A DNA stretch of 64,000 bases, taken from Candidatus Harrisonbacteria bacterium (GTDB taxonomy: Bacteria; Patescibacteriota; Minisyncoccia; UBA6257; 1-14-0-10-44-23). Positions 1,163 through 57,697 of this stretch are shown in pieces. The stretch spans positions 30,255 to 94,254 of the forward strand of contig JAHFLF010000001.1 in NCBI GenBank assembly GCA_023255625.1. The letters are read 5' to 3'. How positions within the stretch are numbered: the stretch's first letter is position 1; each line of letters opens with the position of its first letter. Under the pieces are notes generated by a model. That model made no database searches, was not told the origin of the DNA, and saw only the letters and a program-made list of their open reading frames with translations. A program made the position numbers and the translations under genes.

Positions 1163-1230
1163 TTATACGACTTCGGCATTATAGCAAGATTCGCAGTAAA
1201 CCCCGGTACTAGAACCTGCTGGTTCAGTAC
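1163..1230 (-). pseudogene. Remnant 3' end of a family paralog (encodes ...GSSTGVYCESCYNAEVV*). Its codons TGC-TAT-AAT form an extended -10 (TGCTATAAT).
   Basis: The 80-aa ORF at 1163..1405 ends with the family C-terminal signature YCESCYNAEVV but lacks the rest of the protein. It lies between the stop of the 1257..2984 paralog and the operator/start of the partial paralog. Confidence 0.4.
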
Positions 1231-1256
1231 GGGGCAAGTTTTTTCTTAGTTTGTTA

Positions 1257-2984
1257 TTACACAACTTCTGCATTGTAACATTGTTCGCAATATACCATCT
1301 CTCGTCTTCCAGGCGCATAGCTCGTCTCAAACTCGTTTGAGCATCCTGGGCGCATACACTGCCGGTGCCACAACTTCCACGGATTGCGCCACGCCAGACG
1401 AGCATAATGCCGACAGTTCGGACACTGCCGCGGGATAGGCAACTTAGCTCTCTTATAGAATACTAACTCCTGCGGCGTTAAACGAAAAGCTGCGGTGCAC
1501 TGATGCACGCATCCACCTGCCGACGGACCTGCGTGCTCACAGCCGATTGTTTTCTTAAGGATATCGTCGCTAATCAAAGCACTATCATCAGGCAGGTCGG
1601 CTGGCTTTATATCAATATTCGGATGCTTCTCCTCGGGCTCTTGATAGTTATACCCACGCGTAAGTAACTCATCTTTACTGAATGGGTAATACTCCTGTGC
1701 CACGCTACCGTTATACGCAAACGGCGAAAGTTCAATTGGGAAAAATTCACCGTATTTATACACGCGGCCACCCTTTCCTTGATACGGCATCGCGTCCATG
1801 TGTGCAATAATTTTCGGCACCATCTTTTCATACTCCTCCTTCGTATACTGCTTATTCAAAATACAATACTGCTTATTACGAACACCAAAACATCCGAATA
1901 GATTAGAGCTACTCTTGCACCAGCCAGTGTATGTGCAGTCCAAGAGCGCCCCATTAGAGGCAACGGAAAGTTTTAAATTACGATCGGCATCTCCCCCGCT
2001 AATATATTCATAAATAAGTTCTGCGCCGGCAATATTATTTGTGTCCATGCAGTCCTTAAGATTCAGACTGCGTCCCACATAGCGCACATCCTCACTGTCA
2101 AAAACTTCAAAGCAGCTCTTACCATTCTTTATCCCGCTTAGAGCATGACCAGTTGAATTAACTGATTTAATGATATTTGCGTACTTATGCAGTGCGCCCG
2201 TATACAGCTTGATAAAATCTTGCGTAAGCCCCTGGAATGTTTTGTAACTGCCCGTGTTTATTTTGCCCATCTCATCCTGATACTGCTCTTTTGTGAGCTG
2301 CCTACCATAAAAAACGTATTCGCGATTACGCAAGTTCGCCGACATAAAACAGTGCTGGCAGTTTACGCAATCAAAAAGAAATGCTGAATTTAAGGACGAA
2401 CGAACATAGACAGAACAGTAGACATCATAATTGAGTGTTCCAAAGGTGCTCCCATAACATCGTTCGCACTCCATCATATTCAGACAATCAAACACCTGCC
2501 GCGACTTGTCTACATTTTTGCAATAAAATGCCTCCTCGCTTCCGACGATAGAATATGAAAGATAGCAGTCCTTCGCGTCTTTTGTGACATTTGAATACGG
2601 CGAATTAACGGAATTCATGTGCCACAGGTTCGGCTGCGGAACGGCGCGGAGTAGTTCGTCTGCCTGCTCAAAAAATGGCCGGCTAAAATCATAGTCGCGA
2701 CCATAGCTTAGTGCATCCCATGAATCAGAGTAATAACACTCGTGGCAGAACACCGTCAGCTTCCCGTCTCCGGGATATACCGAAAAAATGCTTTTCTTGC
2801 AATTACCGCAAGCCGCCTTATATAGTGTCCGCTCATTTCGCCACGCGTACCGCCGCATGAGCCGACACTCCGGACACCAAGTTGGCGGCGGGACGTCAAT
2901 TTTCTTGTAAAAATCAAAATCCGAAGCGTCTATAATAAAAGATTCCTTGCAGTTCTGGCAGACCTTTGTTTCAGTAGAAGCCAT
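1257..2984 (-). CDS. Cys-rich multi-zinc-ribbon family protein (575 aa)
   Basis: ORF track. N-terminus MASTETKVCQNCKESF..FYKKIDVPPPTWCPECR, C-terminus ...LWHRQCMRPGCSNEFETSYAPGRREMVYCEQCYNAEVV. Internal NLRNREYVF..LTKEQY and CILNKQYTKEEYE repeats. Confidence 0.85.
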   Translation of the reverse strand: MASTETKVCQNCKESFIIDASDFDFYKKIDVPPPTWCPECRLMRRYAWRNERTLYKAACGNCKKSIFSVYPGDGKLTVFCHECYYSDSWDALSYGRDYDFSRPFFEQADELLRAVPQPNLWHMNSVNSPYSNVTKDAKDCYLSYSIVGSEEAFYCKNVDKSRQVFDCLNMMECERCYGSTFGTLNYDVYCSVYVRSSLNSAFLFDCVNCQHCFMSANLRNREYVFYGRQLTKEQYQDEMGKINTGSYKTFQGLTQDFIKLYTGALHKYANIIKSVNSTGHALSGIKNGKSCFEVFDSEDVRYVGRSLNLKDCMDTNNIAGAELIYEYISGGDADRNLKLSVASNGALLDCTYTGWCKSSSNLFGCFGVRNKQYCILNKQYTKEEYEKMVPKIIAHMDAMPYQGKGGRVYKYGEFFPIELSPFAYNGSVAQEYYPFSKDELLTRGYNYQEPEEKHPNIDIKPADLPDDSALISDDILKKTIGCEHAGPSAGGCVHQCTAAFRLTPQELVFYKRAKLPIPRQCPNCRHYARLAWRNPWKLWHRQCMRPGCSNEFETSYAPGRREMVYCEQCYNAEVV

Positions 2985-2989
2985 AGATA

Positions 2990-3095
2990 GTTAGAGTATA
3001 GAGCGGAGCCCCGCACCGTGCCAGCAGGCTCTGGTGCGTGGGAGCCGGTTCAACTCCGACGCCCAGTAGGGGTCGGAGCCCCGACCGGAGCGTCG
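2990..3095 (-). repeat. GC-rich structured 5'-leader element (copy 1) upstream of paralog 1257..2984
   Basis: ~105-nt GC-rich block with three hairpins (for example CCCCGAC-N6-GTCGGGG). Embedded in a ~200-bp block identical to 4797..4996. Confidence 0.6.
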
Positions 3096-3136
3096 GGGTC
3101 GTGAAATTCTGTTTGCAGTTCTGACAATTTTTAGTT
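3093..3136 (-). pseudogene. Remnant paralog N-terminus (MEAETKNCQNCKQNF) upstream of the GC-rich leader element
   Basis: An ATG plus family CQNCKxxF codons directly flank the element. The frame reads through the element to a stop just past the real ATG. The analogous remnant MMRDTRACQNCKQDF lies at ~4996..5034. Confidence 0.35.
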
Positions 3137-3194
3137 TCAGCTTCCATATTTTTTACTACATTATGACATTAGCAATAATGTCATAATGTTGTTA

Positions 3195-4862
3195 CTAAAG
3201 CATCTCCTTTTGATAACACGCTTCGCAATAAATCTTATACTCTTTTTGCTGCTGCGGCGAATACGAAGTCTCAAAATTGGCGGAGCAGTTCGCGCACGCC
3301 CCTGGCCAAAGCTCTCGGCGGTTACGCATATTCATACGACGCTGATGACGACAATTAAAACATTGCTTAGGAAGGGCTACGCCAAGTCGCCTGTACACTG
3401 AAATCTCGTGTGCGATAAATTTATAGTTCCTGCCACACTCTGTACATTTGAGAACATGCTTTAATAATTCATCGGAATACTCTGAGGGAATCTGGGGCAG
3501 ATCCTCGTGGCTGATGGTTTCTTTACCAACAGTACTTGGAATGTCATCCTGCCAACGAAAACCTTGAGCAAGCGCCTCCTCTTTAGTCAGGGGCATATAT
3601 TCGTTGACAATCGCTTCATTATAGGCAAACGGCGAAAGTGAGGCGGGAAAAAATTGCCCCCATTCCCCTGTTTTTCTCATGTGTCCGACAATTTCAGGGA
3701 CCAGTTCTTCGTACTGCTCTTTAGTGTACTGCTTATTTAAAATACAATATTCCGCATTACGCATCCCGGCACACCCGAATAAATTTTTAGAAGCGAAAAT
3801 GAAATCTGAATAGTAAATATCGTGTGAGGCATGACAATAGTGATTGCCGATGATATGACTACTCGCCCCAATCGCCGTCACTATCTCATAGGATTGATCG
3901 GGTTCAAGCGAGAAAGAGGCGTCATATACCTGCACCGCCCGCCGGCCCGTGAATACAAACTTTGAGTCCTCGCCTGCACGCAGATCAAAACAATACTGTA
4001 AATTTTTACCATTATAGATATGATTGCCGGAAACTTCGGTATTGTGACTACCAAAGTAATGATGCTGCGGTAATTCTCTCCGAAGTTTCAACTGCTCGGC
4101 TAAAATCATTTTAATCGTCTCCGGATCATGCAGCGGATGCTCCTTCAGGAACTGCTCGTACTGCTCTTTAGTTACCTGCTGATTGAAAATATGGTAACTC
4201 TTCTGGATAAGACCGACGCATCCAATAGAATTACTCACGCTGCGACAGTCATACAAACCAATACTGTCGTTGCAGTTTTCGCACTCCTCTGAGTACAAAA
4301 TCTGGTAACAATTTACGCAATCAACGCACTCATAGCATGAGTCTGATTTATGAACATAGAGGCCATCAACACAATTTTTTGAGTCCCAGACTATATGGCC
4401 ATATGAGCAGTCTTCGCTTTCAGGACAACCAAAAACTAAGTAACAATTTTTGCTGTTGAGAATAAAATTTGAATACTCGCATCCCTGACAGTTAACAGCA
4501 TTGGTTGCAAAACGCGGCACAACCTTCAGTAGGTCATTGAATTGATCAAAAAATGGGCGGTTAAAATCAAAATCGCGGCCATACGATTTAGAATCCCAGC
4601 CATCACTCCACCATTCGTCGTTCGCATAAATCGCGTAGGGTGATTTTGGATGATACATTGAGACCACCATCTTGCCCGACTTATCCGACGGCCTCTTATA
4701 TAATGTCTTAAAATTCCGGAAAAGCATCCGCCTTTGATTACGACACTGCGGACACCAGGTCGGCGGCGGTACCGCCATTTTTTTGTAGAACTCAAAGTCC
4801 GAAGCGTCTATAACAAAAGATTCCTTGCAGTTCTGGCAGACCTTTGTTTCAGTAGAAGCCAT
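3195..4862 (-). CDS. Cys-rich multi-zinc-ribbon family protein (555 aa)
   Basis: ORF track. The N-terminal 15 aa are identical to the 1257..2984 paralog, and ~200 nt of DNA (5' leader plus start) are identical. Confidence 0.85.
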   Translation of the reverse strand: MASTETKVCQNCKESFVIDASDFEFYKKMAVPPPTWCPQCRNQRRMLFRNFKTLYKRPSDKSGKMVVSMYHPKSPYAIYANDEWWSDGWDSKSYGRDFDFNRPFFDQFNDLLKVVPRFATNAVNCQGCEYSNFILNSKNCYLVFGCPESEDCSYGHIVWDSKNCVDGLYVHKSDSCYECVDCVNCYQILYSEECENCNDSIGLYDCRSVSNSIGCVGLIQKSYHIFNQQVTKEQYEQFLKEHPLHDPETIKMILAEQLKLRRELPQHHYFGSHNTEVSGNHIYNGKNLQYCFDLRAGEDSKFVFTGRRAVQVYDASFSLEPDQSYEIVTAIGASSHIIGNHYCHASHDIYYSDFIFASKNLFGCAGMRNAEYCILNKQYTKEQYEELVPEIVGHMRKTGEWGQFFPASLSPFAYNEAIVNEYMPLTKEEALAQGFRWQDDIPSTVGKETISHEDLPQIPSEYSDELLKHVLKCTECGRNYKFIAHEISVYRRLGVALPKQCFNCRHQRRMNMRNRRELWPGACANCSANFETSYSPQQQKEYKIYCEACYQKEML

Positions 4863-4867
4863 AGATA

Positions 4868-4973
4868 GTTAGAGTATAGAGCGGAGCCCCGCACCGTGCC
4901 AGCAGGCTCTGGTGCGTGGGAGCCGGTTCAACTCCGACGCCCAGTAGGGGTCGGAGCCCCGACCGGAGCGTCG
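4868..4973 (-). repeat. GC-rich structured 5'-leader element (copy 2) upstream of paralog 3195..4862
   Basis: Identical to copy 1. Confidence 0.6.
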
Positions 4974-5078
4974 GGGTCGTGAAATCCTGTTTACAGTTTT
5001 GGCACGCTCGTGTATCGCGCATCATGTATCGTATATCGTAATGCTTCTATCCCCACGTTACAAGTTATACGTTATGCG

Positions 5079-6782
5079 CTACACGACTTCGGCGTTATAG
5101 CAGGCTTCACAATATATTTTTTCTTTGCGCTCTGGCGCATACGGCGTTTCAAATTCGTTTACACAACCCTGCTTCATACACCTCCGGTGCCAGAGTTTAC
5201 GGGGCGGACGCAGGCCAATGCGGCGCAGGTAGCGGCACTCCGGGCAGAGACGCGGGATTGGCAAATTCAGACGACGAAGCAGCTGCAATTCGGGCACAAC
5301 AATATTGTAATTCTTGGCACACTTTGTGCAGGTCAGCGCCTCTTTGGTAATCGTCTCCGGCGCGTCTTTAATATCATCAGGCAATTCAGACATCACGAGC
5401 GTCCCCTTGCCAAAGGTGCCAGGCACGAGCTCTTCCCACTTGAATCCCTTAGTCATCGCCTCCTCTTTGGTCATTGGCATATAAATCTGACCCTGCGTCT
5501 CATTGTAGCCAAATGGCGAAAGCTGCACCGGGAAAAACTCGCCGTATTCACCAGCTGTGCGCATATGGGCGATAATTTTTGCACGCAGTTCTTTATACTC
5601 CTCTGGTGTATATTGTTTATTAAAAATACAGTATTTTTTCTTTCGCATGCCAACGCAACCAAACAAATTTTCACTATTGTGGCAGCTGTCGCAGTACGAA
5701 ATAAAGGCATTGTCGTAACTCAAATGAGTGAAAAAGGTATTGTTATCGCGCACGAGCGCATGGCACTCGTAAATCAATGAACAACTGAATCCAAAGTGAT
5801 ACGAATCCATTGAATCTTTAACATCCGGGCAGACAAGGCAGTAGGTTGAGTCCTCGGTCTTTTCGGCATCAAATACATGGCGACAATTTTTTGAGGACGA
5901 AATTTCGTTGCCCGAGACCTGGACCGAGCGGTCAATAACGGCAAATTTGTGAATCGCCTTCTCGCGCATGATTTCAAGAAACTGATTGTACAACTGTTGT
6001 CGCGCCTCATGCGAACCTAGTTTTCCGCCGGAGGCGGATCCGCCTTGGGCGGAAAATTCAGCAACCCGTTTCTCGTAGGCCTCTTTTGATAATTGCTCGT
6101 TAAGAAATACATACTGCTTGTTGCGCAGATTCACGGAAAGAAAACAATTTGACGCGCCGCGGCAGTCATAACAGTAGCTGCAATTAGTACAATCGCGCAG
6201 CAGAATACTATACTGACAGTTGTAACACTTAGAACAGTTAATACTCTCGTACATCAGATCATTGCCCTGCGAAAGCCAGTAACAATCAGCCGAGTCGCGG
6301 GCTCCATTAAAAGTATTGGTTGAATACAATACATTCTCTGACTCAAATAATCCGAAGCAGAGATAACAATTTTTATTGTCGCTTGAATGATTTGTATACT
6401 CTGAATTAACACTATTTTTTGAAAGGAGCGCGATACGCGGAACCTCTAGCTGCATCTCCTGCCACTGCGGGAAAAATGGTCGCGAAAAATCAAAATCACG
6501 CGCATAACTCGTCGCGTCCCACCCATCACCCCACCAACAGTTTGGACAGTACACCTTAAACGGCTTGTTCGGCGAATAAATCGTGACAATACTCTTTTGA
6601 CACAAATCACAATTACGACGGTAGAGCACTCGCTCATTTCGCCAGGCATAGCGACGACGCTGACGACAATCCGGGCAGTGCGTCGGCGGCGGAACATTAA
6701 TCTTTTTGTAAAAATCAAAGTCTGCCGGTTCAATTTGGAAATTCTGTTTACAATTTTGGCAGACTTTTATTTCTGAATTCAT
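5079..6782 (-). CDS. Cys-rich multi-zinc-ribbon family protein (567 aa, about 36 Cys)
   Basis: ORF track. Family N- and C-terminal motifs (..YCEACYNAEVV). The start lies 5 nt downstream of the murB stop, so co-transcription is likely. Confidence 0.85.
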   Translation of the reverse strand: MNSEIKVCQNCKQNFQIEPADFDFYKKINVPPPTHCPDCRQRRRYAWRNERVLYRRNCDLCQKSIVTIYSPNKPFKVYCPNCWWGDGWDATSYARDFDFSRPFFPQWQEMQLEVPRIALLSKNSVNSEYTNHSSDNKNCYLCFGLFESENVLYSTNTFNGARDSADCYWLSQGNDLMYESINCSKCYNCQYSILLRDCTNCSYCYDCRGASNCFLSVNLRNKQYVFLNEQLSKEAYEKRVAEFSAQGGSASGGKLGSHEARQQLYNQFLEIMREKAIHKFAVIDRSVQVSGNEISSSKNCRHVFDAEKTEDSTYCLVCPDVKDSMDSYHFGFSCSLIYECHALVRDNNTFFTHLSYDNAFISYCDSCHNSENLFGCVGMRKKKYCIFNKQYTPEEYKELRAKIIAHMRTAGEYGEFFPVQLSPFGYNETQGQIYMPMTKEEAMTKGFKWEELVPGTFGKGTLVMSELPDDIKDAPETITKEALTCTKCAKNYNIVVPELQLLRRLNLPIPRLCPECRYLRRIGLRPPRKLWHRRCMKQGCVNEFETPYAPERKEKIYCEACYNAEVV

Positions 6783-7925: not shown

Positions 7926-8049
7926 CTTTGTACAAGTTGCATTTGCGAGCAAGGCCTAGTTTAAAGTAGTCTTGCTCTTCCACTCATTCTGCAGGGAGTA
8001 TAGCAGAGTTGATGCAGTCTGTCAAGCAAATTTGATAGCAAATGTGGTG

Positions 8050-8129: not shown

Positions 8130-8260
8130 TTGTAAATAGCCCACACGGTGCTGTGCAGATCGGCACCGGCTATCTGCGCGTGGTCGCGCAGCGCCTGCTC
8201 TCGGCCCCTTTGGGCCTGCGAGAGTGCCGCCTAGCACAGCACCGTGTGGGCTATTTCTTC
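8130..8260. repeat. Nested palindromic element, copy 1 (outer arms aaatagcccacacggtgctgtgc / gcacagcaccgtgtgggctattt; conserved core GGCACCGGCTATCT..GCGCCTGCTCTCGGCC..GGCCTGCGAGAGTGCCGCCTAGC)
   Basis: The core is shared with 50110..50260. It overlaps the 3' end of lepA. Confidence 0.6.
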
Positions 8261-10284
8261 AAAAGTTCCTTAAACACGCTCGCCGGGATGCGCACCGCAC
8301 TTTGCGTCCCGCGCTCCTCAAGTCGTTCCTTGCCGCGCGCCTGCTTTTTCCAGAGCTTCATTTTGCGCGTTCTGTCGCCGCCGTTTTTACCAAAATTACC
8401 CAGCTCTTTTGCTTCAGCCGGAATAGTTTCACGGGCAATCACGCGGCCGCGATGACTCGCCTGAATCGCCTGCTTAAACTGCAGTTTTGGCAGTAAATCC
8501 TTGAGCTTTGCGCAGGTGGCTCGTGCCTCGTGCTCAATTTCTGATTTCGGTAAAATGCGCGTGAGCCCGGGCACCACAGTTTCTGCCACCAAAATCTCCA
8601 TCTTATCAACATCGCCTTTTTCATAGCCCACGACTTCGTAGCTTAACGAACCATACCCCTGCGATACTGATTTTAGCTTGTCATCAAAGTCGGCGATCAA
8701 ATCAGAAAGTGGCAGCGCCGCCTTGATGAGCATCCTGCCGGAGGAGGCGGCACCAATAGTCTCTGTCGTGACGCCGGAAATACGATACAAATCTTTCAGC
8801 TGCAAAATCGGGCCAAGATACTGCATCGGCGTTAGAATTTCAATCCTGGTCATCGGCTCATACACCTGCAGCGGGTCATTTGGAAAATCTTTCGGATTCT
8901 TAATCCAAAACCAGCCATTTTCGCCATCAACCGGATCCAAGTTGTCGGTCTTCTCGTGCGAGCGTCCTTTGTCGCTGAACATTTGCACCTTATATGCCAC
9001 CGACGGAAAAGAACTCACGACCGGCACATCAAATTCTCTGTCCAGTCGCTCGGCCGCAATCTCAAAATGCAGCTTACCTAAAAATCCGCCCTTAAATCCG
9101 CGCCCTAACACTTCACTGGCATCCGGCTCAAAACGAATAGCCGAGTCAGAAAGGCGCAGTTTTGCCAGAGCCTTTTTAAATTCATCATAATCTTCGGGAT
9201 GTTCCGGGTAAAATGAAACAAAGACAACCGGCCGCGGCTCACGATATCCGGGTAGGGCTAATTCCAGTTGATCGGTTGCAGTCACTGCACGAACATCGCT
9301 GATCGTGTCGCCAATCTTCACCTGGCCTGGATCTTTAATACCGGTTGCGATGTAGCCCGTCTCACCATTTTTAATTGACTGCCCCGGAACTAGATTCGGC
9401 TTAAGGTAGCCGATGTCTTTTGTTTTCACCTCTGCACCCGTTGCCACCATGTGATAGGTCGTGTTGAGTTTAAACTCTCCGCTAAACACACGGATGTAGG
9501 CGATCACGCCGCGGTGTTCGTCGTACTGGGAATCAAAGATAAGGGCGCGCGCGGCTTCTCCCTTTCCTAAAGGGAGGGGACCGCTTGCGGTGAGGGATTT
9601 AGATTCAAAATCCCTCCCTCCTGCTGGAGTACTCCCTTTAGGAAAGGGAGAAGGGGGCGGGATGCGCTCAACAACAGCCACAAGAAGTTCGGGCACTCCT
9701 TCGCCGGTCTTGCCGGAAACTTTTAGAATTTCATTGGTTTCAATGCCAAGCAAAATACTGATCTCCTCCATCGCCTGCTCAACCTGTTCCGGGGTCGCCA
9801 CATCAACTTTGTTGACGGCGCCGATGATTGTGAGCCCGGCACGCTTTGCCATCTCATAGTTATACAAAGTCTGCGCCTGCACCCCCTGCGTTGCGTCCAC
9901 CAGCAAAATTGCTCCTTCAACGGCTGCGAGCGCCCGACTGACCTCGTAACCAAAATCGCTGTGACCGGGCGTATCTATCAAATTCAAGACATACTCGTCT
10001 GAATTTGATAACTTAGGACTTAGGACTAAGGACTTAGGACTTTCTGTTCCGTCTCCGTTCTTAGTTCTAAGTTCTAAGTTCTTAGTCGGCAAATGGTACA
10101 CCATCCGCACCGGTGTCATCTTAATCGTAATCCCCCGCTCCCGCTCCAAATCCATTGAATCCAAAAACTGCGCCTGCATGTTGCGCTTCTCAATCGTCTT
10201 AGTGATTTCCAGCATTCTATCGGCCAAGGTTGATTTCCCGTGGTCGATGTGCGCGGTGATGACAAAGTTGCGGATGTTCTGCAT
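8251..10284 (-). CDS. lepA: Elongation factor 4 (LepA), carrying two in-frame palindromic insertions
   Basis: N-terminus NIRNFVITAHIDHGKSTLADRMLE. Motifs DSMDLERERGITIK, LIDTPGH and the LepA C-terminal domain. 677 aa is longer than the typical ~600 aa because of two insertions. Confidence 0.9.
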   Translation of the reverse strand: MQNIRNFVITAHIDHGKSTLADRMLEITKTIEKRNMQAQFLDSMDLERERGITIKMTPVRMVYHLPTKNLELRTKNGDGTESPKSLVLSPKLSNSDEYVLNLIDTPGHSDFGYEVSRALAAVEGAILLVDATQGVQAQTLYNYEMAKRAGLTIIGAVNKVDVATPEQVEQAMEEISILLGIETNEILKVSGKTGEGVPELLVAVVERIPPPSPFPKGSTPAGGRDFESKSLTASGPLPLGKGEAARALIFDSQYDEHRGVIAYIRVFSGEFKLNTTYHMVATGAEVKTKDIGYLKPNLVPGQSIKNGETGYIATGIKDPGQVKIGDTISDVRAVTATDQLELALPGYREPRPVVFVSFYPEHPEDYDEFKKALAKLRLSDSAIRFEPDASEVLGRGFKGGFLGKLHFEIAAERLDREFDVPVVSSFPSVAYKVQMFSDKGRSHEKTDNLDPVDGENGWFWIKNPKDFPNDPLQVYEPMTRIEILTPMQYLGPILQLKDLYRISGVTTETIGAASSGRMLIKAALPLSDLIADFDDKLKSVSQGYGSLSYEVVGYEKGDVDKMEILVAETVVPGLTRILPKSEIEHEARATCAKLKDLLPKLQFKQAIQASHRGRVIARETIPAEAKELGNFGKNGGDRTRKMKLWKKQARGKERLEERGTQSAVRIPASVFKELLKK
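9556..9653. repeat. Nested perfect palindrome inserted in frame within lepA
   Basis: cttctccctttcctaaagggag ... gggatttagattcaaaatccc ... ctccctttaggaaagggagaag. Encodes a PFPKGSTPAGGRDFESKSLTASGPLPLGKGE-type insertion in a conserved LepA loop. Confidence 0.7.
10010..10090. repeat. Inverted arrays of 7-mer tandem repeats ([TTAGGAC]x4 ... [GTTCTAA]x4) inserted in frame within lepA
   Basis: Read from the sequence. Encodes an extra PKSLVLSPKLSNSDEY segment between the G1 and DTPGH motifs. Confidence 0.7.
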
Positions 10285-17567: not shown

Positions 17568-19349
17568 TCATGCAATTACTTCTTGGTTATAACATCTCTC
17601 GCAATATAAAAGTTCAGGACGCCCTGGTTCATATGCAGTCTCAAACTCATTCTTACAGTGCACACCACCATGATCGTGCAACCGCGTATTTTTATATGTT
17701 GACTCTGGGGCATGACACATACATCGCCTATGCCATAGCTTATAGGAGGTAAAATATTTTGAATGAACCCTGAAACGACACGCTGGACATGACCGAGGCA
17801 GTGCAATATTGAATTTCTTATAGAACTCAAGCTCTTTTAGAATTATTCTAAATACTCCTGGACACGAGCGTTCGTCCCCGCTCTCTCGAGCACACTCCAA
17901 AATCTCTTCGCATATAGACATCGGTACATCTTTAATATGGTCTGGAACATCGCTAGAAGGAACCGTAACTGCGTGATGACTGACAGGCGCATCGTACCAC
18001 CAATATCCCTTAGCCAACGCAGATTCTTTTGACTCGACAAAGTGCTCCTGCATTGCCCAGGAACTGTTATAAGGAAATAATGAATGACCTCCTGGCGGAA
18101 ACTCACCGTATCTATAGAGCCTTCCTTTGTCGTCCTTATACGGCATCATATTCATCTGCTCAATAATTTTTGCGCGGAGCTTCTCATACTCCACTTTTCC
18201 ATACTGCTTATTGAAAATGCAATATTTTTTACTCCGGAGACCCGCACAGGCAAATAAATATTCACTATCAATACATTCCCGTGCATATCTAATATCGCGT
18301 GAATTACGGATTCTATACGAAAAAGCCACGTCCTGAGAAGCAACTATAGATGCTGCATCGTACAGAAGCTGCGACTTAAGCCCGGCGCCAGCAATATCTT
18401 GAGAATCTTTTGTACCGTAGCCGACCACAAAACTGTAATGGCAATTTTCAATATCATTAAGAGCCTGGAATGTATGTCTGCAATTTTTAGAATTTATAAG
18501 ATTATCACCCGTACAGCTTGGTGCATTCCGAATGACCGCATACTTACGCGGATGCCCAAGAACGATTGAGTCGTAGCGCATCCGTACTGCGTCCCGGACA
18601 GCACGACTACCTAAATCATATTTCGCGCGCTCCTTTTTATACTCTTCTTTTGCATACTCTACATTAAATATGCAATATTTTTTGTTGCGCAAACCCACAC
18701 ATCCGAGACAGTCGGTACAGCCGCGACAATCATACATAAAATCACAATTAACTAGTTCGTCGCTATATGCAGAGCTGGTCACCTGAAACGACTTGTCTAC
18801 GGAAATAACATCATACGCTTGCTGTACAAATGTACTTAGTGTTGCGTCAACAGACTCCTTACTAAACACCGCGGTATGGCCATATATACAATTTTCACTC
18901 CCAAATGTACCGCTACACAAGTAACAATTCTTTGAATCTGTAGCGCCAAGACAGTATTCGCAATCTACGCTATTCACAATTTCCGTACTCCGCACAGGCA
19001 CCGCGCTCAACAGTTCTTTGTACTGCGCAAAAAATGGACGCGAAAAATCATAATCTCTACCATACGACATCCCATCCCAACCATCTGAAACCCAAAATTT
19101 GTAGTCGTACACCGGTGATTGGACGACCTCCGGATAGATTGAGACAATGCGCTCATTGTGCCCAGGCGCCTGACAGACTCTCTGATACAATGTCGTAGAA
19201 TCAGCACACCAACTAAGTCGCCGCTGCATCCGACACTGCACACACCATGTCGGTGGCGGCACCTGCATTTTTTTGTAAAACTCAAAATCTTCCGGCTCAA
19301 TCGTGAACTGATTTTTACACTGCTGACAATTTTTAATCTCTGTCCCCAT
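17568..19349 (-). CDS. Cys-rich multi-zinc-ribbon family protein (593 aa)
   Basis: ORF track. MGTEIKNCQQCKNQFTIEPEDFEFYKKMQVPPPTWCVQCR ... LLYCERCYNQEVIA. Confidence 0.85.
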   Translation of the reverse strand: MGTEIKNCQQCKNQFTIEPEDFEFYKKMQVPPPTWCVQCRMQRRLSWCADSTTLYQRVCQAPGHNERIVSIYPEVVQSPVYDYKFWVSDGWDGMSYGRDYDFSRPFFAQYKELLSAVPVRSTEIVNSVDCEYCLGATDSKNCYLCSGTFGSENCIYGHTAVFSKESVDATLSTFVQQAYDVISVDKSFQVTSSAYSDELVNCDFMYDCRGCTDCLGCVGLRNKKYCIFNVEYAKEEYKKERAKYDLGSRAVRDAVRMRYDSIVLGHPRKYAVIRNAPSCTGDNLINSKNCRHTFQALNDIENCHYSFVVGYGTKDSQDIAGAGLKSQLLYDAASIVASQDVAFSYRIRNSRDIRYARECIDSEYLFACAGLRSKKYCIFNKQYGKVEYEKLRAKIIEQMNMMPYKDDKGRLYRYGEFPPGGHSLFPYNSSWAMQEHFVESKESALAKGYWWYDAPVSHHAVTVPSSDVPDHIKDVPMSICEEILECARESGDERSCPGVFRIILKELEFYKKFNIALPRSCPACRFRVHSKYFTSYKLWHRRCMCHAPESTYKNTRLHDHGGVHCKNEFETAYEPGRPELLYCERCYNQEVIA

Positions 19350-23110: not shown

Positions 23111-23145
23111 AGTACATTCACTATATCATACCGCCTCCAACCTGT

Positions 23146-23177
23146 ACTAGTCGCTTATTCGCGCGAATAAGCGACTA
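23146..23177. promoter_or_regulatory. Perfect 32-bp palindrome ACTAGTCGCTTATTCGCGAATAAGCGACTAGT in the promoter of the ArsR-family gene (putative autoregulatory operator)
   Basis: Read directly from the sequence. It is centred ~50 nt upstream of the ArsR ATG. Half-site copies occur directly upstream of two Cys-rich paralog start codons. Confidence 0.6.
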
Positions 23178-23183
23178 GTAGAA

Positions 23184-49191: not shown

Positions 49192-49265
49192 TGGTGCCCC
49201 CAGATGGAATCGAACCATCATCAGCGGATTAAAAGTCCGTTGCTCTACCACTGAGCTATAGGGGC
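49192..49265 (-). tRNA. tRNA-Lys (anticodon UUU)
   Basis: Minus-strand sequence GCCCCTATAGCTCAGTGGTAGAGCAACGGACTTTTAATCCGCTGATGATGGTTCGATTCCATCTGGGGGCACCA. 7-bp acceptor stem, D-loop AGCTCAGTGGTAGAGC, anticodon loop CTTTTAA, T-loop GGTTCGATTCC, encoded CCA. Confidence 0.85.
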
Positions 49266-50109: not shown

Positions 50110-50260
50110 ACATTTTCTATAAAAATGTAACCTGTAAATTTCTCCGCAGAGCGGCACCGGCTATCTCTTTCTGCTGAAAAAGCGCCTGCTCTCGGCCTCT
50201 TCGGCCTGCGAGAGTGCCGCCTAGCGGAGAAATTTACAGGTTACATTTTTATATTACCCT
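50110..50260. repeat. Nested palindromic element, copy 2 (30-bp perfect outer arms tataaaaatgtaacctgtaaatttctccgc / gcggagaaatttacaggttacatttttata; same conserved core as copy 1) bounding high-GC island 2
   Basis: Read from the sequence. The inner stem shows a compensatory change (GCCC..GGGC in copy 1 against GGCC..GGCC here). Confidence 0.6.
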
Positions 50261-50426
50261 ACACCCACACAGAATTTTTATTTGAAATGGCGGGTTCGCA
50301 GCAGGATGTGCTGCTAGCGGCGGCTCTCGGACGGCGACGGCCGGAGAGCGCAGGGCAATTTTTTAGCAAAAAAATATGCCCGACGCCGTCTGCAGCACAT
50401 CCTGCTGCAAACAGCGGAAAATACAA

Positions 50427-56242: not shown

Positions 56243-57697
56243 ATGCGTATTTTTGATACCCTGTCGGGCGAGAAAAAGGAACTGAAGCAACCAATCGGCG
56301 AGGACGGCAAACCGCGGCCGATAAAAATGTTTGTCTGCGGCCCGACCGTCTACGACTACCCGCACATTGGTAATGCGCGGACATTTGTCTTCTTTGACAT
56401 GTTCGTGCGGTATCTACGAAGCCAAGGCATGCAGGTCAAGTATCTCCAGAACATCACTGACATTGACGACAAAATAATTCAGAGGGCAAAAGAAACAGGA
56501 ACAACCTGGCAAGAGGTCAGTAAGACATACGAAGAGATTTATTTTGAAAATCTAAAGGCGCTCGGCGTAGACACCGCGGGCATGCAGTTTGCACGAGCGA
56601 CAGAACATATTCCGGAAATCATTGCACAGGTACAGCGTCTGCAAGAAACAGGCCATGTCTATAAGATAGAGGGCGACCCCGACGCTACGGCCGGGGCAGG
56701 TGGTTGGTATTTTGACATCACAAAATATGCTGGATATGGCGAACTTGCTCGCCGCACAGTGCAACAGGCCGAGGACGGTGTTACTCGCTTAGACAACAGC
56801 GAAAAAAAACGAAATGCCGGTGATTTTTGCTTGTGGAAGTTAAAATCAGTCGCGAGTAGCGAGTCGCGAGTAGCGAGTGAGCCGAGCTGGGAGTCAGAAC
56901 TGGGAACGGGCAGGCCGGGTTGGCATATTGAAGACACGGCGATTACCGAGCACTTCTTCGGCCCGCAGTACGACATCCATGGCGGGGCACTGGATTTAAA
57001 GTTCCCACATCACGAGGCCGAACGAGCCCTGCAGGAAAGTGCTTCTGGCAAAACACCCTTTGTAAACTTCTGGATGCACACCGGTTTCTTAACCGTGAAT
57101 GGCACGAAGATGAGCAAGTCGCTCGGGAATTTCATGACGGTTGATGATGTTCTGAAAAAAATGACTGCGGATGAGTTTCGGATGATGCTGCTCATTCATC
57201 ACTACCGCCAGCCGCTGGATTACATTCCGGATTACATAGATGTAGTTAAAAAACATCTTATTGAAATGCGCGCCGTTCTTTCAAAAATTGATTTGCAGAT
57301 AGCGAGCAATAATACTGCAAAATTGAGCGACTTTAATCTGGCTGCATTCGAGGAAAAATTTCACGATGCGATAGCGGATGACTTCAATACTCCCCTCGCC
57401 CTTGGCATCATATTCCAGATAATCAATCAGCTAAATAAAGAAATATGGAGCTTGAATTCAGAGTTCATCAAAAAATTCAAAGTATTCTTTGTGAACGCTT
57501 TTGCAAGTTTCGGAATCACGCTGGACGCCCCGAAAATTCCCGCCGAAATCCAAAAACTCGCACAAGAACGCGAGTTATCCAGAGCTTCTAAACAGTTTGC
57601 TAAATCCGACGGCTTGCGCGTGCAGATAGAACAGTTAGGATATGTGGTAGAAGATACACCGGCTGGTCCGCTCGTTTTGCCAAAAACGAGCGAGTAG
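56243..57697 (+). CDS. cysS: cysteine--tRNA ligase
   Basis: FVCGPTVYDYPHIGNART (HIGH), KMSKSLGN, and GRPGWHIEDTAI. Confidence 0.9.
   Translation: MRIFDTLSGEKKELKQPIGEDGKPRPIKMFVCGPTVYDYPHIGNARTFVFFDMFVRYLRSQGMQVKYLQNITDIDDKIIQRAKETGTTWQEVSKTYEEIYFENLKALGVDTAGMQFARATEHIPEIIAQVQRLQETGHVYKIEGDPDATAGAGGWYFDITKYAGYGELARRTVQQAEDGVTRLDNSEKKRNAGDFCLWKLKSVASSESRVASEPSWESELGTGRPGWHIEDTAITEHFFGPQYDIHGGALDLKFPHHEAERALQESASGKTPFVNFWMHTGFLTVNGTKMSKSLGNFMTVDDVLKKMTADEFRMMLLIHHYRQPLDYIPDYIDVVKKHLIEMRAVLSKIDLQIASNNTAKLSDFNLAAFEEKFHDAIADDFNTPLALGIIFQIINQLNKEIWSLNSEFIKKFKVFFVNAFASFGITLDAPKIPAEIQKLAQERELSRASKQFAKSDGLRVQIEQLGYVVEDTPAGPLVLPKTSE
56843..56872 (+). repeat. 14-bp direct duplication (gtcgcgagtagcga x2) creating an in-frame insertion in cysS
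   Basis: Encodes the extra SVASSESRVAS before the conserved EPSW..GRPGWHIE segment. Confidence 0.55.

Follow-up and report, generated by a model that had tools for sequence, protein, structure and literature searches.

A dispersed double-hairpin element of Patescibacteria and displaced gene starts in a tandem array of Cys-rich paralogs

The Rickettsia palindromic elements (RPE) are short palindromic repeats of a reduced genome, about 100–150 nt long, which are dispersed, lie in frame in conserved protein genes and are translated, occur also in RNA genes and spacers, and contain no internal transposase. Mobile GC clusters are present in yeast mitochondria. Ogata and colleagues are said to have described the RPE in 2000, and Paquin and colleagues reportedly described in 1994 the replacement of the end of the Allomyces atp6 gene by a free-standing homing-endonuclease gene. 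Double-hairpin elements are known from fungal mitochondria (Paquin, Laforest and Lang, 2000, cited in PMC3787672). In this work we analyzed a stretch of 64,000 nucleotides (the window) of contig JAHFLF010000001.1 (positions 30,255–94,254, forward strand) from the Candidatus Harrisonbacteria assembly GCA_023255625.1, and describe an element, named E, which consists of two adjacent hairpins with CCGAC/GTCGG stems and lies in the 5' regions of at least three anciently diverged paralogous genes, two of them in the window. E is probably a short selfish DNA, and a patch of sequence next to it has probably spread among the E-hit paralogs by gene conversion, orphaning their old starts.

The window belongs to a contig of Patescibacteria, the candidate phyla radiation (CPR), with a GC content of about 46%. 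Its minus strand carries a tandem array of Cys-rich proteins of about 560 aa, with at least 10 paralogs in 64 kb (positions 1–38608), all of them with a treble-clef zinc finger (PF13451) at the N-terminus and another zinc finger at the C-terminus. In CPR the family numbers thousands of members, and its N-terminus, compared among 120 homologues, follows the pattern M-x3-5-K-x-CQNCKxxF-T-I-E-P. The paralogs range from about 555 to 590 aa, carry zinc-finger ends and antifreeze-like Cys repeats, and have further members past the window. The family is uncharacterised, and an array of at least 10 such genes is a very large investment for a small genome. The features on which the analysis is based are the following:

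1257–2984, minus strand: paralog 1, 575 aa, member of the Cys-rich CPR family with an N-terminal treble-clef zinc finger.
3195–4862, minus strand: paralog 2, 555 aa, same Cys-rich CPR family.
2937–2984, minus strand: new start MASTETKVCQNCKESF of paralog 1, belonging to the shared block.
2985–3024, minus strand: promoter-like CTGGCA-18-TATACT (9/12 consensus matches), then 10 nt to the ATG, without a Shine-Dalgarno (SD) sequence.
3001–3042, minus strand: a second E-like module (hp3), diverged, in which the stem CCC(A)CGCACC/GGTGCGGGG encloses an inner hairpin and CTCCGCTC comes next; the hairpin occupies 3009–3042.
3043–3053, minus strand: 11 nt of the old gene past E, (A)TT GAA CCG GCT, encoding I E P A.
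3054–3098, minus strand: copy 1 of element E; its 45 nt are in frame with the old gene.
3099–3147, minus strand: displaced old start of paralog 1, MEAETKNCQNCKQNF(T), ATG..MEAETKNCQNCKQNFT, cut by E after TTCACGA; it matches the family N-terminus.
4815–4931, minus strand: copy 2 of the patch, with 11 nt of the old gene, hp3, TATACT (4873–4878), ATG at 4862 and 16 new codons.
4932–4976, minus strand: element E, copy 2.
4977–5025, minus strand: displaced old start of paralog 2, MMRDTRACQNCKQDF(T); MMRDTRACQNCKQDFT.
2971–3147, minus strand: 58-codon open reading frame (ORF) that begins at the old ATG, crosses E and hp3 and ends with a TGA located 13 nt beyond the new ATG; its twin is at 4849–5025.

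Exact identity between the 5' regions of paralogs 1 and 2 extends over 171 nt (2937–3107 = 4815–4985), and the shared block can be followed to 188 nt with one mismatch and to 264 nt at 94%. The block comprises a GC-rich stretch, the spacer ctctatactctaactatct, the ATG and 16 codons (2937–2984 and 4815–4862). Its GC content reaches 74% against the 46% background, and a 126-nt stretch folds at −60.4 kcal/mol (z = −4.95 versus shuffles). An initial annotation, made from the sequence alone, had already noticed this arrangement. The whole observation is indeed present in the sequence, with some coordinates about 10 nt off and one number overstated: the identity of the two segments holds, while the length of about 200 bp given for it does not. 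The block had been said to cover the first codons, the spacer and the GC-rich part, as it does, with 16 codons rather than 15; the strong folding was borne out as well, the two hairpins singled out at that time belonging to one of two alternative folds.

Both junctions are reproduced in independent contigs (L001 and L002) of a second assembly of the same population (ENA ERZ27297344), and an assembly artefact as the source of the arrangement was therefore rejected. The second assembly differs from the window at three positions in 3136 + 9506 bases compared (about 12.6 kb), and all three (3072, 3043 and 2990) are inside copy 1 of the block. The perfect identity is due either to a conversion that took place very recently or to collapse of the repeat during assembly; in both cases the copies share at least 98% of their bases.

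On the coding strand the first junction reads TTC ACG A, 45 nt, TT GAA CCG GCT, i.e., F-T-[15 residues]-(I)-E-P-A, compared with F-T-I-E-P in the family consensus. Joining 3099–3102 to 3043–3053 restores the uninterrupted TTCACGA|TTGAACC. A naive paralog (17568–19349) has the empty site TTCACGATTGAGCC at 19294–19307, and the gene at 5079–6782 reads ..NFQIEPADF at the same place. Given these residues on both sides of E and the uninterrupted site of the naive paralog, E separates, in frame, the CxxC knuckle of the zinc finger from its CPxC knuckle, and the old start without the insertion is predicted to read MEAETKNCQNCKQNFTIEPA.... In copy 1, hairpin 1 is CCCCGAC-GCTCCG-GTCGGGG and hairpin 2 is CTCCGAC-CCCTACTGGGC-GTCGGAG; the CTCCGCTC at the end of hp3 resembles the left arm of hairpin 2. 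The remnant family starts upstream of both elements had been recognised in the initial annotation, at about 3093–3136 and 4996–5034, and only these positions had to be shifted.

In four homologues from other genomes (P0007, P0014, P0067 and P0105) we noticed 8–10 extra residues between the initial M..ETK and CQNC (e.g., ..LRHGSGQAP.., ..NTSAGSVRV..), and the N-terminus of the Cys-rich family seems to be a recurrent insertion site.

A third copy of the arrangement was found beyond the window, before another paralog (L001, 4090–4340). Its old start, MANLETKNCQNCKQNF, is its own; the junction is the same, and the E found there has a different hairpin-2 loop, CCCCGAAGGGC; a 36-nt hairpin is nested in the loop of its hp3. 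The TATACT..ATG and the new N-terminus are the same as in copies 1 and 2. The distinct E variant, joined here to the same patch, argues that this third gene carried an E of its own when the patch came. Comparison of the three copies suggests that each paralog had its own E and that the shared tract began inside or just past it.

The bodies of the three paralogs are 30–55% identical at the DNA level, compared with about 100% in the block. To the right of the block the identity decays gradually (0.97, 0.85, 0.72, 0.58) into a shared unusual segment IIDASDF(D/E)FYKK, and between copies 1 and 3 there is a decay on the left side too. Because the borders are graded on both sides, unlike those of a unit with fixed ends, we favor homologous gene conversion. 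Other paralogs share upstream modules in pairs (1122 with 22827; 19349 with 36810), and the exchange of 5' modules is thus normal in this genome.

The whole block of about 166 nt could instead be a single mobile unit, in which E, having once captured flanking sequence, now carries it along, the unit being inserted at TTCACGA|TT by the machinery of E (one-ended or 'transducing' transposition). This would account for the identical left junction and 11-nt piece of the old gene in the three copies, and E does have a preferred target without duplication, which is held in the same form by naive paralogs. We consider it unlikely, however, as the right border is variable, with identity continuing for 0 to about 35 nt and decaying to about +100 nt, the left side is graded as well (copies 1 and 3), and the same patch adjoins a different E variant in the third copy. 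Moreover, the composite was found nowhere else in a peptide search, and BLAST revealed no copy of hp3 or of the patch among 131 other loci.

Another possibility is that the stubs are the remains of whole paralogs that once stood between the present genes and whose bodies were deleted between an internal E and an E-like upstream sequence, the identical blocks being due to ordinary concerted evolution of upstream regions. In favor of this, the genes stand in tandem (at least 10 paralogs within 64 kb), orphan N- and C-termini are both present, and hp3, which resembles E, terminates about 17 nt ahead of the ATG with part of a hairpin-2 arm, like the sequence in locus L022 (see below). Still, three deletions sharing an end point 11 nt past E would be needed, unless conversion is invoked anyway, and the retention of both E and hp3 with old-gene sequence between them does not correspond to a simple crossover between two E copies. 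Deletion of whole paralogs is for these reasons quite unlikely.

E is not confined to the genes of the array. A 20-mer of E gave eight matches in contigs representing one genome per species. Six of them are CPR metagenome-assembled genomes (Uhrbacteria, two Doudnabacteria, Saccharibacteria and two others) that carry the whole motif, CCCCGAC-GCTCCG-GTCGGGG followed by CTCCGAC-loop-GTCGGAG. The remaining two (Eubacteriales and Chthoniobacterales) were taken as chance matches, as the 20-mer alone was present there, in GC-rich coding sequence and without the hairpin partners. A scan of metagenomes with the first loop left free yielded at least 120 stretches with at least 126 unique sites. The right arm GTCGGAG or a near variant of it, though outside the search pattern, was present in 119 of the 126 sites listed. 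Among the matches listed E is 38–70 nt long, most often 40 nt; some contigs contain 3–6 copies, up to 6 or more per 64-kb contig, and no match was found in viral contigs.

BLAST and regular expressions revealed in the window only the two copies of E and a weak solo stretch resembling hairpin 1 at 56674–56697. The latter is located on the plus strand in cysS, where CCCCGAC-GCTACG-GCCGGGG forms a near-perfect lone hairpin 1 in frame (..GDPDATAGAGG..). Escherichia coli CysS is about 8 residues shorter at this site, and the hairpin may be a decayed half-element. Together with the third copy, there are three E copies in about 75 kb of this genome.

Sequence variation of E is compatible with conserved pairing. 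In the 40-nt form the complementary loops GCTTCG/CGAAGC co-vary to GCCTCG/CGAGGC and GCTACG/CGTAGC, and compensated stem variants occur (TCCCGAC/GTCGGGA, AGCCGAC/GTCGGCT, CACCGAC/GTCGGTG), while the CCGAC/GTCGG core is invariant among the copies compared. The flanks of 94 unique sites gave the logo tCAn|TnG, with C at −3 in 73%, A at −2 in 67%, T at +1 in 60% and G at +3 in 56%. Insertion occurs without target duplication: in the tRNA stubs of L017 and L050, as at the junction in the window, the flanks form contiguous sequence. We also considered that E targets the loops of longer hairpins and rejected this, as only −3/+3 and −2/+2 pair above chance; judging from the flanks, the target is claimed to be a short palindromic site only. 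In one lineage (contigs Ga0209542_*; L023, L054, L057, L083, L089 and related) E was found inside longer repeat-rich spacers, which are built of short repeats of the ATTCGTAT type and other recurring modules and hold up to 6 or more E per 64-kb contig.

E sites are located between genes, in frame in conserved proteins and in stubs of genes and tRNAs, in both orientations. Among the matches listed, 15 of 119 lie within long open frames, and the Pfam domains that hold E in frame are EF-Tu-type GTPase domain 2, PheS, SpoU methylases, DEAD helicase, Tgt, SMC, P-type ATPase and Dus. The clearest case was found in PheS: P0122 and P0132 read CIFC-SDADKVGSEPRPERRG-G(R/K)GC and their nearest relatives (81% identity) CIFC(D/N)Q-KGC, with a gap of exactly 15 residues; one more distant PheS has a decayed insert at the same spot.

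About 9% of the E sites listed are within 100 nt of an intact tRNA. In a tRNA stub beside an intact copy of the same tRNA, E was found for Thr, Tyr (three times), Val, Arg and Lys. Locus L017, for example, consists of positions 1–15 of tRNA-Thr, E, positions 16–23, a spacer and a complete tRNA-Thr, and the same plan was revealed in tRNA-Tyr (L050, L055, L087) and tRNA-Val (L125). In L015 an intact tRNA-Arg is followed by 16 nt, E and the 3' part of a second copy, and in L038 (Lys) and L076 (Val) a full-length tRNA copy with two elements adjoins the intact one. The D-loop-like flanks had raised the possibility of an intron-like insert in working tRNAs; this was rejected, since ARAGORN found no tRNA at any excised junction and intact tRNAs adjoin the stubs. 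Simple tandem duplication was rejected too, as the spacer by the intact copy is no repeat of what lies past the stub in L017 and in the window, and bears only a loose similarity to it in L076.

E was also detected beside Cys-rich family genes of other genomes. In L022 the stub MNSVVKICQN is followed by a truncated E, 18 nt and MTQKTHQCQNCKTDF; in L108 ...VYCESCYNAEVV is followed by 18 nt, E and the orphan CEDCYNAEIV. A gene carried as a cassette inside hairpin 2 was considered for L022 and rejected, as no GTCGGAG was present within 4 kb downstream.

These data bear on the two explanations offered in the initial annotation. That of a mobile GC-rich insertion which displaced the 5' end proved essentially right: the core of the block is a dispersed element of many CPR genomes and the displaced starts are real. 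An element dedicated to the paralogs is not what was found, E being scattered as a generic repeat, an outcome that the initial annotation itself had listed as speaking against its regulatory reading. The second explanation, a leader peptide or attenuator, is not supported, given the presence of E in coding sequences and tRNA stubs in both orientations, the three different old N-termini, and the Rfam and terminator searches. At the gathering threshold Rfam detected one tRNA only in the whole window, and for 2900–3200, at E-values up to 10, the best match was rpfG with 15 bits versus a gathering score of 76. No terminator or antiterminator with a U tract was revealed in 2900–3200 or 4780–5080. 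A curated cis-regulatory RNA was rejected on the same grounds, there being no Rfam family and no fixed position or orientation upstream of related genes.

It had been noticed correctly that the remnant frames cross the element and end just inside the real gene. A more specific proposal is that translation of this ORF of 58–71 codons melts the hairpins and hands ribosomes over to the overlapped ATG (ATGGCTTCTACTGA), as a leader peptide or by translational coupling. In all three copies the ORF is open, even in the one where a nested insert adds 36 nt (12 codons), it stops 13 nt past the ATG, and the real start lacks an SD sequence. However, E is open in all six frames, and a stretch of 39 codons with about 70% GC is free of stops with a chance of about 0.5, so the open frame carries little weight. 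The stop itself is supplied by the T-E codons, which are conserved in the new N-terminus, each of the three peptides is a different old N-terminus without regulatory codon runs, neither a U-tract terminator nor an Rfam match was found, and most genes here lack an SD sequence anyway. The sole database relative of the 58-codon ORF in a peptide search was its 71-aa equivalent in the third copy. Translational coupling as the reason for the arrangement is very unlikely, but it could still operate as a by-product. Genes of this genome generally lack an SD sequence and have a −10-like hexamer 5–15 nt before the ATG; a near-leaderless transcript from the predicted CTGGCA-18-TATACT promoter is therefore plausible.

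The invariance of the CCGAC/GTCGG core across CPR classes and the structure of E, two inverted pairs of one 7-mer, also recall a signal for DNA uptake or recombination, in which case the stubs would be scars of transformation, E-bearing fragments having been joined illegitimately at one end. The genome encodes ComEC, and the stubs end 5–15 nt from E on the side of the intact gene, as if the hairpin protected the incoming end. Yet three copies in about 75 kb is a density far under that of known uptake signals, PheS shows the whole unit inserted at once, and in the window the shared sequence is on the side of the intact gene and not of the stub. An uptake signal is accordingly extremely improbable.

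Returning to E as selfish DNA and the patch as a conversion tract, the following course of events can be proposed. Several paralogs would have received E in frame in their zinc finger, each at one and the same preferred site, as read from the sequence. One E-hit gene would then have lost its body, so that its stub, E and 11 nt came to abut the upstream region and start of another paralog. The patch would thus have a single origin and contain the E-like hairpin, CTGGCA-18-TATACT, the ATG without an SD sequence and the new N-terminus MASTETKVCQNCKESFIIDASDF. To judge by the identity profile, this arrangement would have been copied into other E-hit paralogs by conversion, anchored by E on the left and by the conserved N-terminal coding region on the right, and the N-terminal finger would have been restored. 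The old starts, as they can be read in the sequence, would thereby have been orphaned. Expression from the new ATG would depend on the internal promoter, giving a near-leaderless mRNA, on re-initiation behind the remnant ORF of 58 codons, or on both. E is without a demonstrated regulatory role, and re-initiation after the remnant ORF may contribute to expression.

Several points weigh against this reconstruction. Only 2–3 of the 126 E sites listed touch the Cys-rich family, and the link between family and element is statistically weak; the metagenome set, obtained with 21 fixed bases in the pattern, is biased to near-consensus copies. The promoter agrees with the consensus at 9/12 positions, which is a common degree of match. 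The initial fusion is a reconstruction, and the postulated intermediate, a paralog with E and without the patch, was not observed. The breakpoint fixed 11 nt past E in all three copies agrees with a single origin followed by conversion, but fits a unit moving whole as well. Finally, there was no transposase or integrase among the 10 unannotated ORFs of the window, and tblastn of about 0.96 Mb of E-bearing DNA with approximate queries (IS608/IS200 TnpA and a RAYT-like protein) gave no match at BLAST sensitivity, which is a weak negative.

The arrangement also affects annotation. Gene callers give affected genes a wrong start and call the stubs as small proteins, and assemblies break at the repeat (L001 begins inside it). 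The remnant read-through at 4090–4305 of L001 is annotated as a 71-aa protein (P0121). Paralog 2 in the second assembly (L002, 8001–9464) is called from an internal Met, with 487 instead of 555 aa, 68 residues short.

Two further features of the array are related to the ends of its genes:

1163–1234, minus strand: 3' counterpart, a hairpin and an orphan C-terminus; the layout at the gene end is that of L108, which has E itself there, while the hairpin in the window is a different one.
3158–3189, no strand assigned: AT-rich palindrome, a perfect 14-4-14, lying 4 nt past the paralog 2 stop codon and 10 nt ahead of the old ATG of paralog 1.

At the 3' end the real C-terminus ..YCEQCYNAEVV* (stop at 1257) is followed by a 22-nt spacer and the GC-rich hairpin 1201–1234, beyond which the orphan C-terminus (V)YCESCYNAEVV* is located at 1163–1200.

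The palindrome had been noted in the initial annotation at about 3150–3182, some 10 nt upstream of the remnant ATG; apart from its position this was accurate. In the 64 kb only four AT-rich perfect palindromes, this one included, have arms of 11 nt or more. Other array members have a palindrome directly before the ATG, CTTATTCGTACGAATAGG followed by 12 nt and the ATG in two genes and TAATTCGCGCGAATAAGCGACTAGT in two others, and the palindrome at 3158–3189 is therefore most simply read as the promoter/operator region of the old gene; the operator proposed in the initial annotation is thus plausible. An 88-aa helix-turn-helix gene in the L001 array is flanked by CTTATTC..GAATAAG palindromes. The palindromes of the array suggest a common repressor for it. 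Families of AT-rich palindromes were seen at 1127–1160 and 23145–23180, before the ATGs at 19349 and 36810, and in L001 at 3751–3790 and 4052–4085; ATG-proximal palindromes are common to pairs of otherwise diverged paralogs.

It should be added that the window contains a second structured family, at 8134–8256 and 50118–50253 (minus strand), with a further hairpin at 50294–50412. The two copies have a common core CTAGGCGGCACTCTCGCAGGCC-N5-GGCCGAGAGCAGGCGCT-N15-GATAGCCGGTGCCG, enclosed by outer stems of 23–30 bp that are complementary within a copy and unrelated between copies. Both are located just past gene ends, and the lepA stop is inside the stem. The family has no match in Rfam and none in 131 other loci; it may be a functional RNA, or an element inserting into the centre of terminator palindromes. 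Between lepA and murB, where the whole spacer of 500 nt is non-coding, the region's best promoter match (TTGACA-17-TATACT with TG, 11/12) was found at 8025–7997, followed about 80 nt downstream by a terminator-like hairpin with a T run (7918–7901). The segment 7895–8025 (minus strand), without an Rfam match, is a candidate small RNA. The lepA gene itself (8251–10284) encodes 677 aa, about 75 more than usual, with additional low-complexity segments (..TKNGDGTESPKSLVLSPKLSNSDE.., ..PSPFPKGSTPAGGRDFESKSLTASGPLPLGKGEAARA..) which look like in-frame insertions of another kind. Adjoining the only tRNA of the window (49195–49265), an island with up to 78% GC in the 46% GC genome (49392–50125) contains a 217-aa ORF without a Pfam match and looks like foreign DNA or a chimeric join.

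Comparison of E with known systems revealed partial similarity to several of them. Repetitive extragenic palindromic sequences and bacterial interspersed mosaic elements (REP/BIME) with their REP-associated tyrosine transposases (RAYT), and the hairpin MITEs (miniature inverted-repeat transposable elements) of IS200/IS605, also called palindrome-associated transposable elements (PATEs), are hairpin-based, have a short specific target without duplication and depend on an enzyme in trans. REP are extragenic and species-specific, whereas intragenic copies of E are common; membership in REP/BIME was rejected for this reason and because no Y1 transposase was found in the window or in 0.96 Mb (tblastn, approximate queries). 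With the IS200/IS605 MITEs E shares only the short target and the lack of target duplication; their hairpins are at the ends of a longer element, while those of E abut. No cognate TnpA, HUH or Y1 enzyme was found near E, either among the ORFs of the window or, with approximate queries, in about 0.96 Mb that comprises genome fragments only.

The Correia elements of Neisseria have inverted repeats at their ends and duplicate a TA. These small repeats can donate promoters and are co-transcribed with their neighbors, which is similar to the situation described here, but the promoter-like site of the window is in the co-converted flank and not in E. An attC site of integrons was rejected, as E is conserved near base-for-base between sites, the window contains no integrase and no right arm was present past the L022 gene; GTTRRRY fits only some right flanks of E (e.g., GTTGAAC in the window). 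As in the end replacement by homing endonucleases, a substitute gene end is supplied, which keeps the gene intact, and the resident end is left as an untranslated stub. There is, however, no endonuclease ORF in the block of about 166 nt, whose sole ORF is the remnant read-through, and the replacement concerns the 5' end together with a promoter-like site, its spread taking place among the paralogs within a single genome. Integrative elements that target tRNA genes produce a similar layout of substitute and orphan ends; here there is no enzyme gene in the insert.

It can be hypothesized, tentatively, that E is the visible part of an undescribed mobile-DNA system of Patescibacteria, in which a nuclease or recombinase acting in trans would recognise the CCGAC/GTCGG hairpins and insert E at CAN|TNG, the breaks being repaired from a second copy of the gene. 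If so, its targets would include loops of tRNA arms and coding regions of zinc knuckles, and E would time and again drive the replacement of gene ends, the donation of promoters and the homogenisation of paralogs in tiny genomes. CPR genomes, small and streamlined as they are, usually count as poor in mobile DNA. An element of 40–50 nt conserved near base-for-base across class-level lineages, located in housekeeping genes and beside stubs and restored copies, would represent a new and testable system, and what looked like a candidate riboswitch or attenuator is replaced by an explanation through selfish DNA and repair. No description of such an element in CPR was found in the literature searched, which does not in itself prove that it is unpublished.

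In its behavior E appears closest to the RPE and to the double-hairpin elements and GC clusters of fungal mitochondria. Like the latter, E consists of adjacent GC-rich hairpins of a few tens of nucleotides in a genome of lower GC content, is found in spacers and genes and occurs nested, and in both cases mobility is inferred from presence and absence. The mitochondrial elements are organellar and unrelated to E in sequence, and E has a CAN|TNG-like target and in-frame copies in housekeeping genes. Like the RPE, E is a dispersed palindromic element with multiple copies (at least 126 sites) that keeps the frame of conserved proteins and is absent from close PheS orthologues. It differs from the RPE in being shorter (38–70 nt) and GC-rich, in its two tandem hairpins, in its near base-for-base conservation across CPR classes and in its location beside stubs and restored copies. 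With Patescibacteria as its hosts, E can be regarded as an analogue of the RPE and not as a member.

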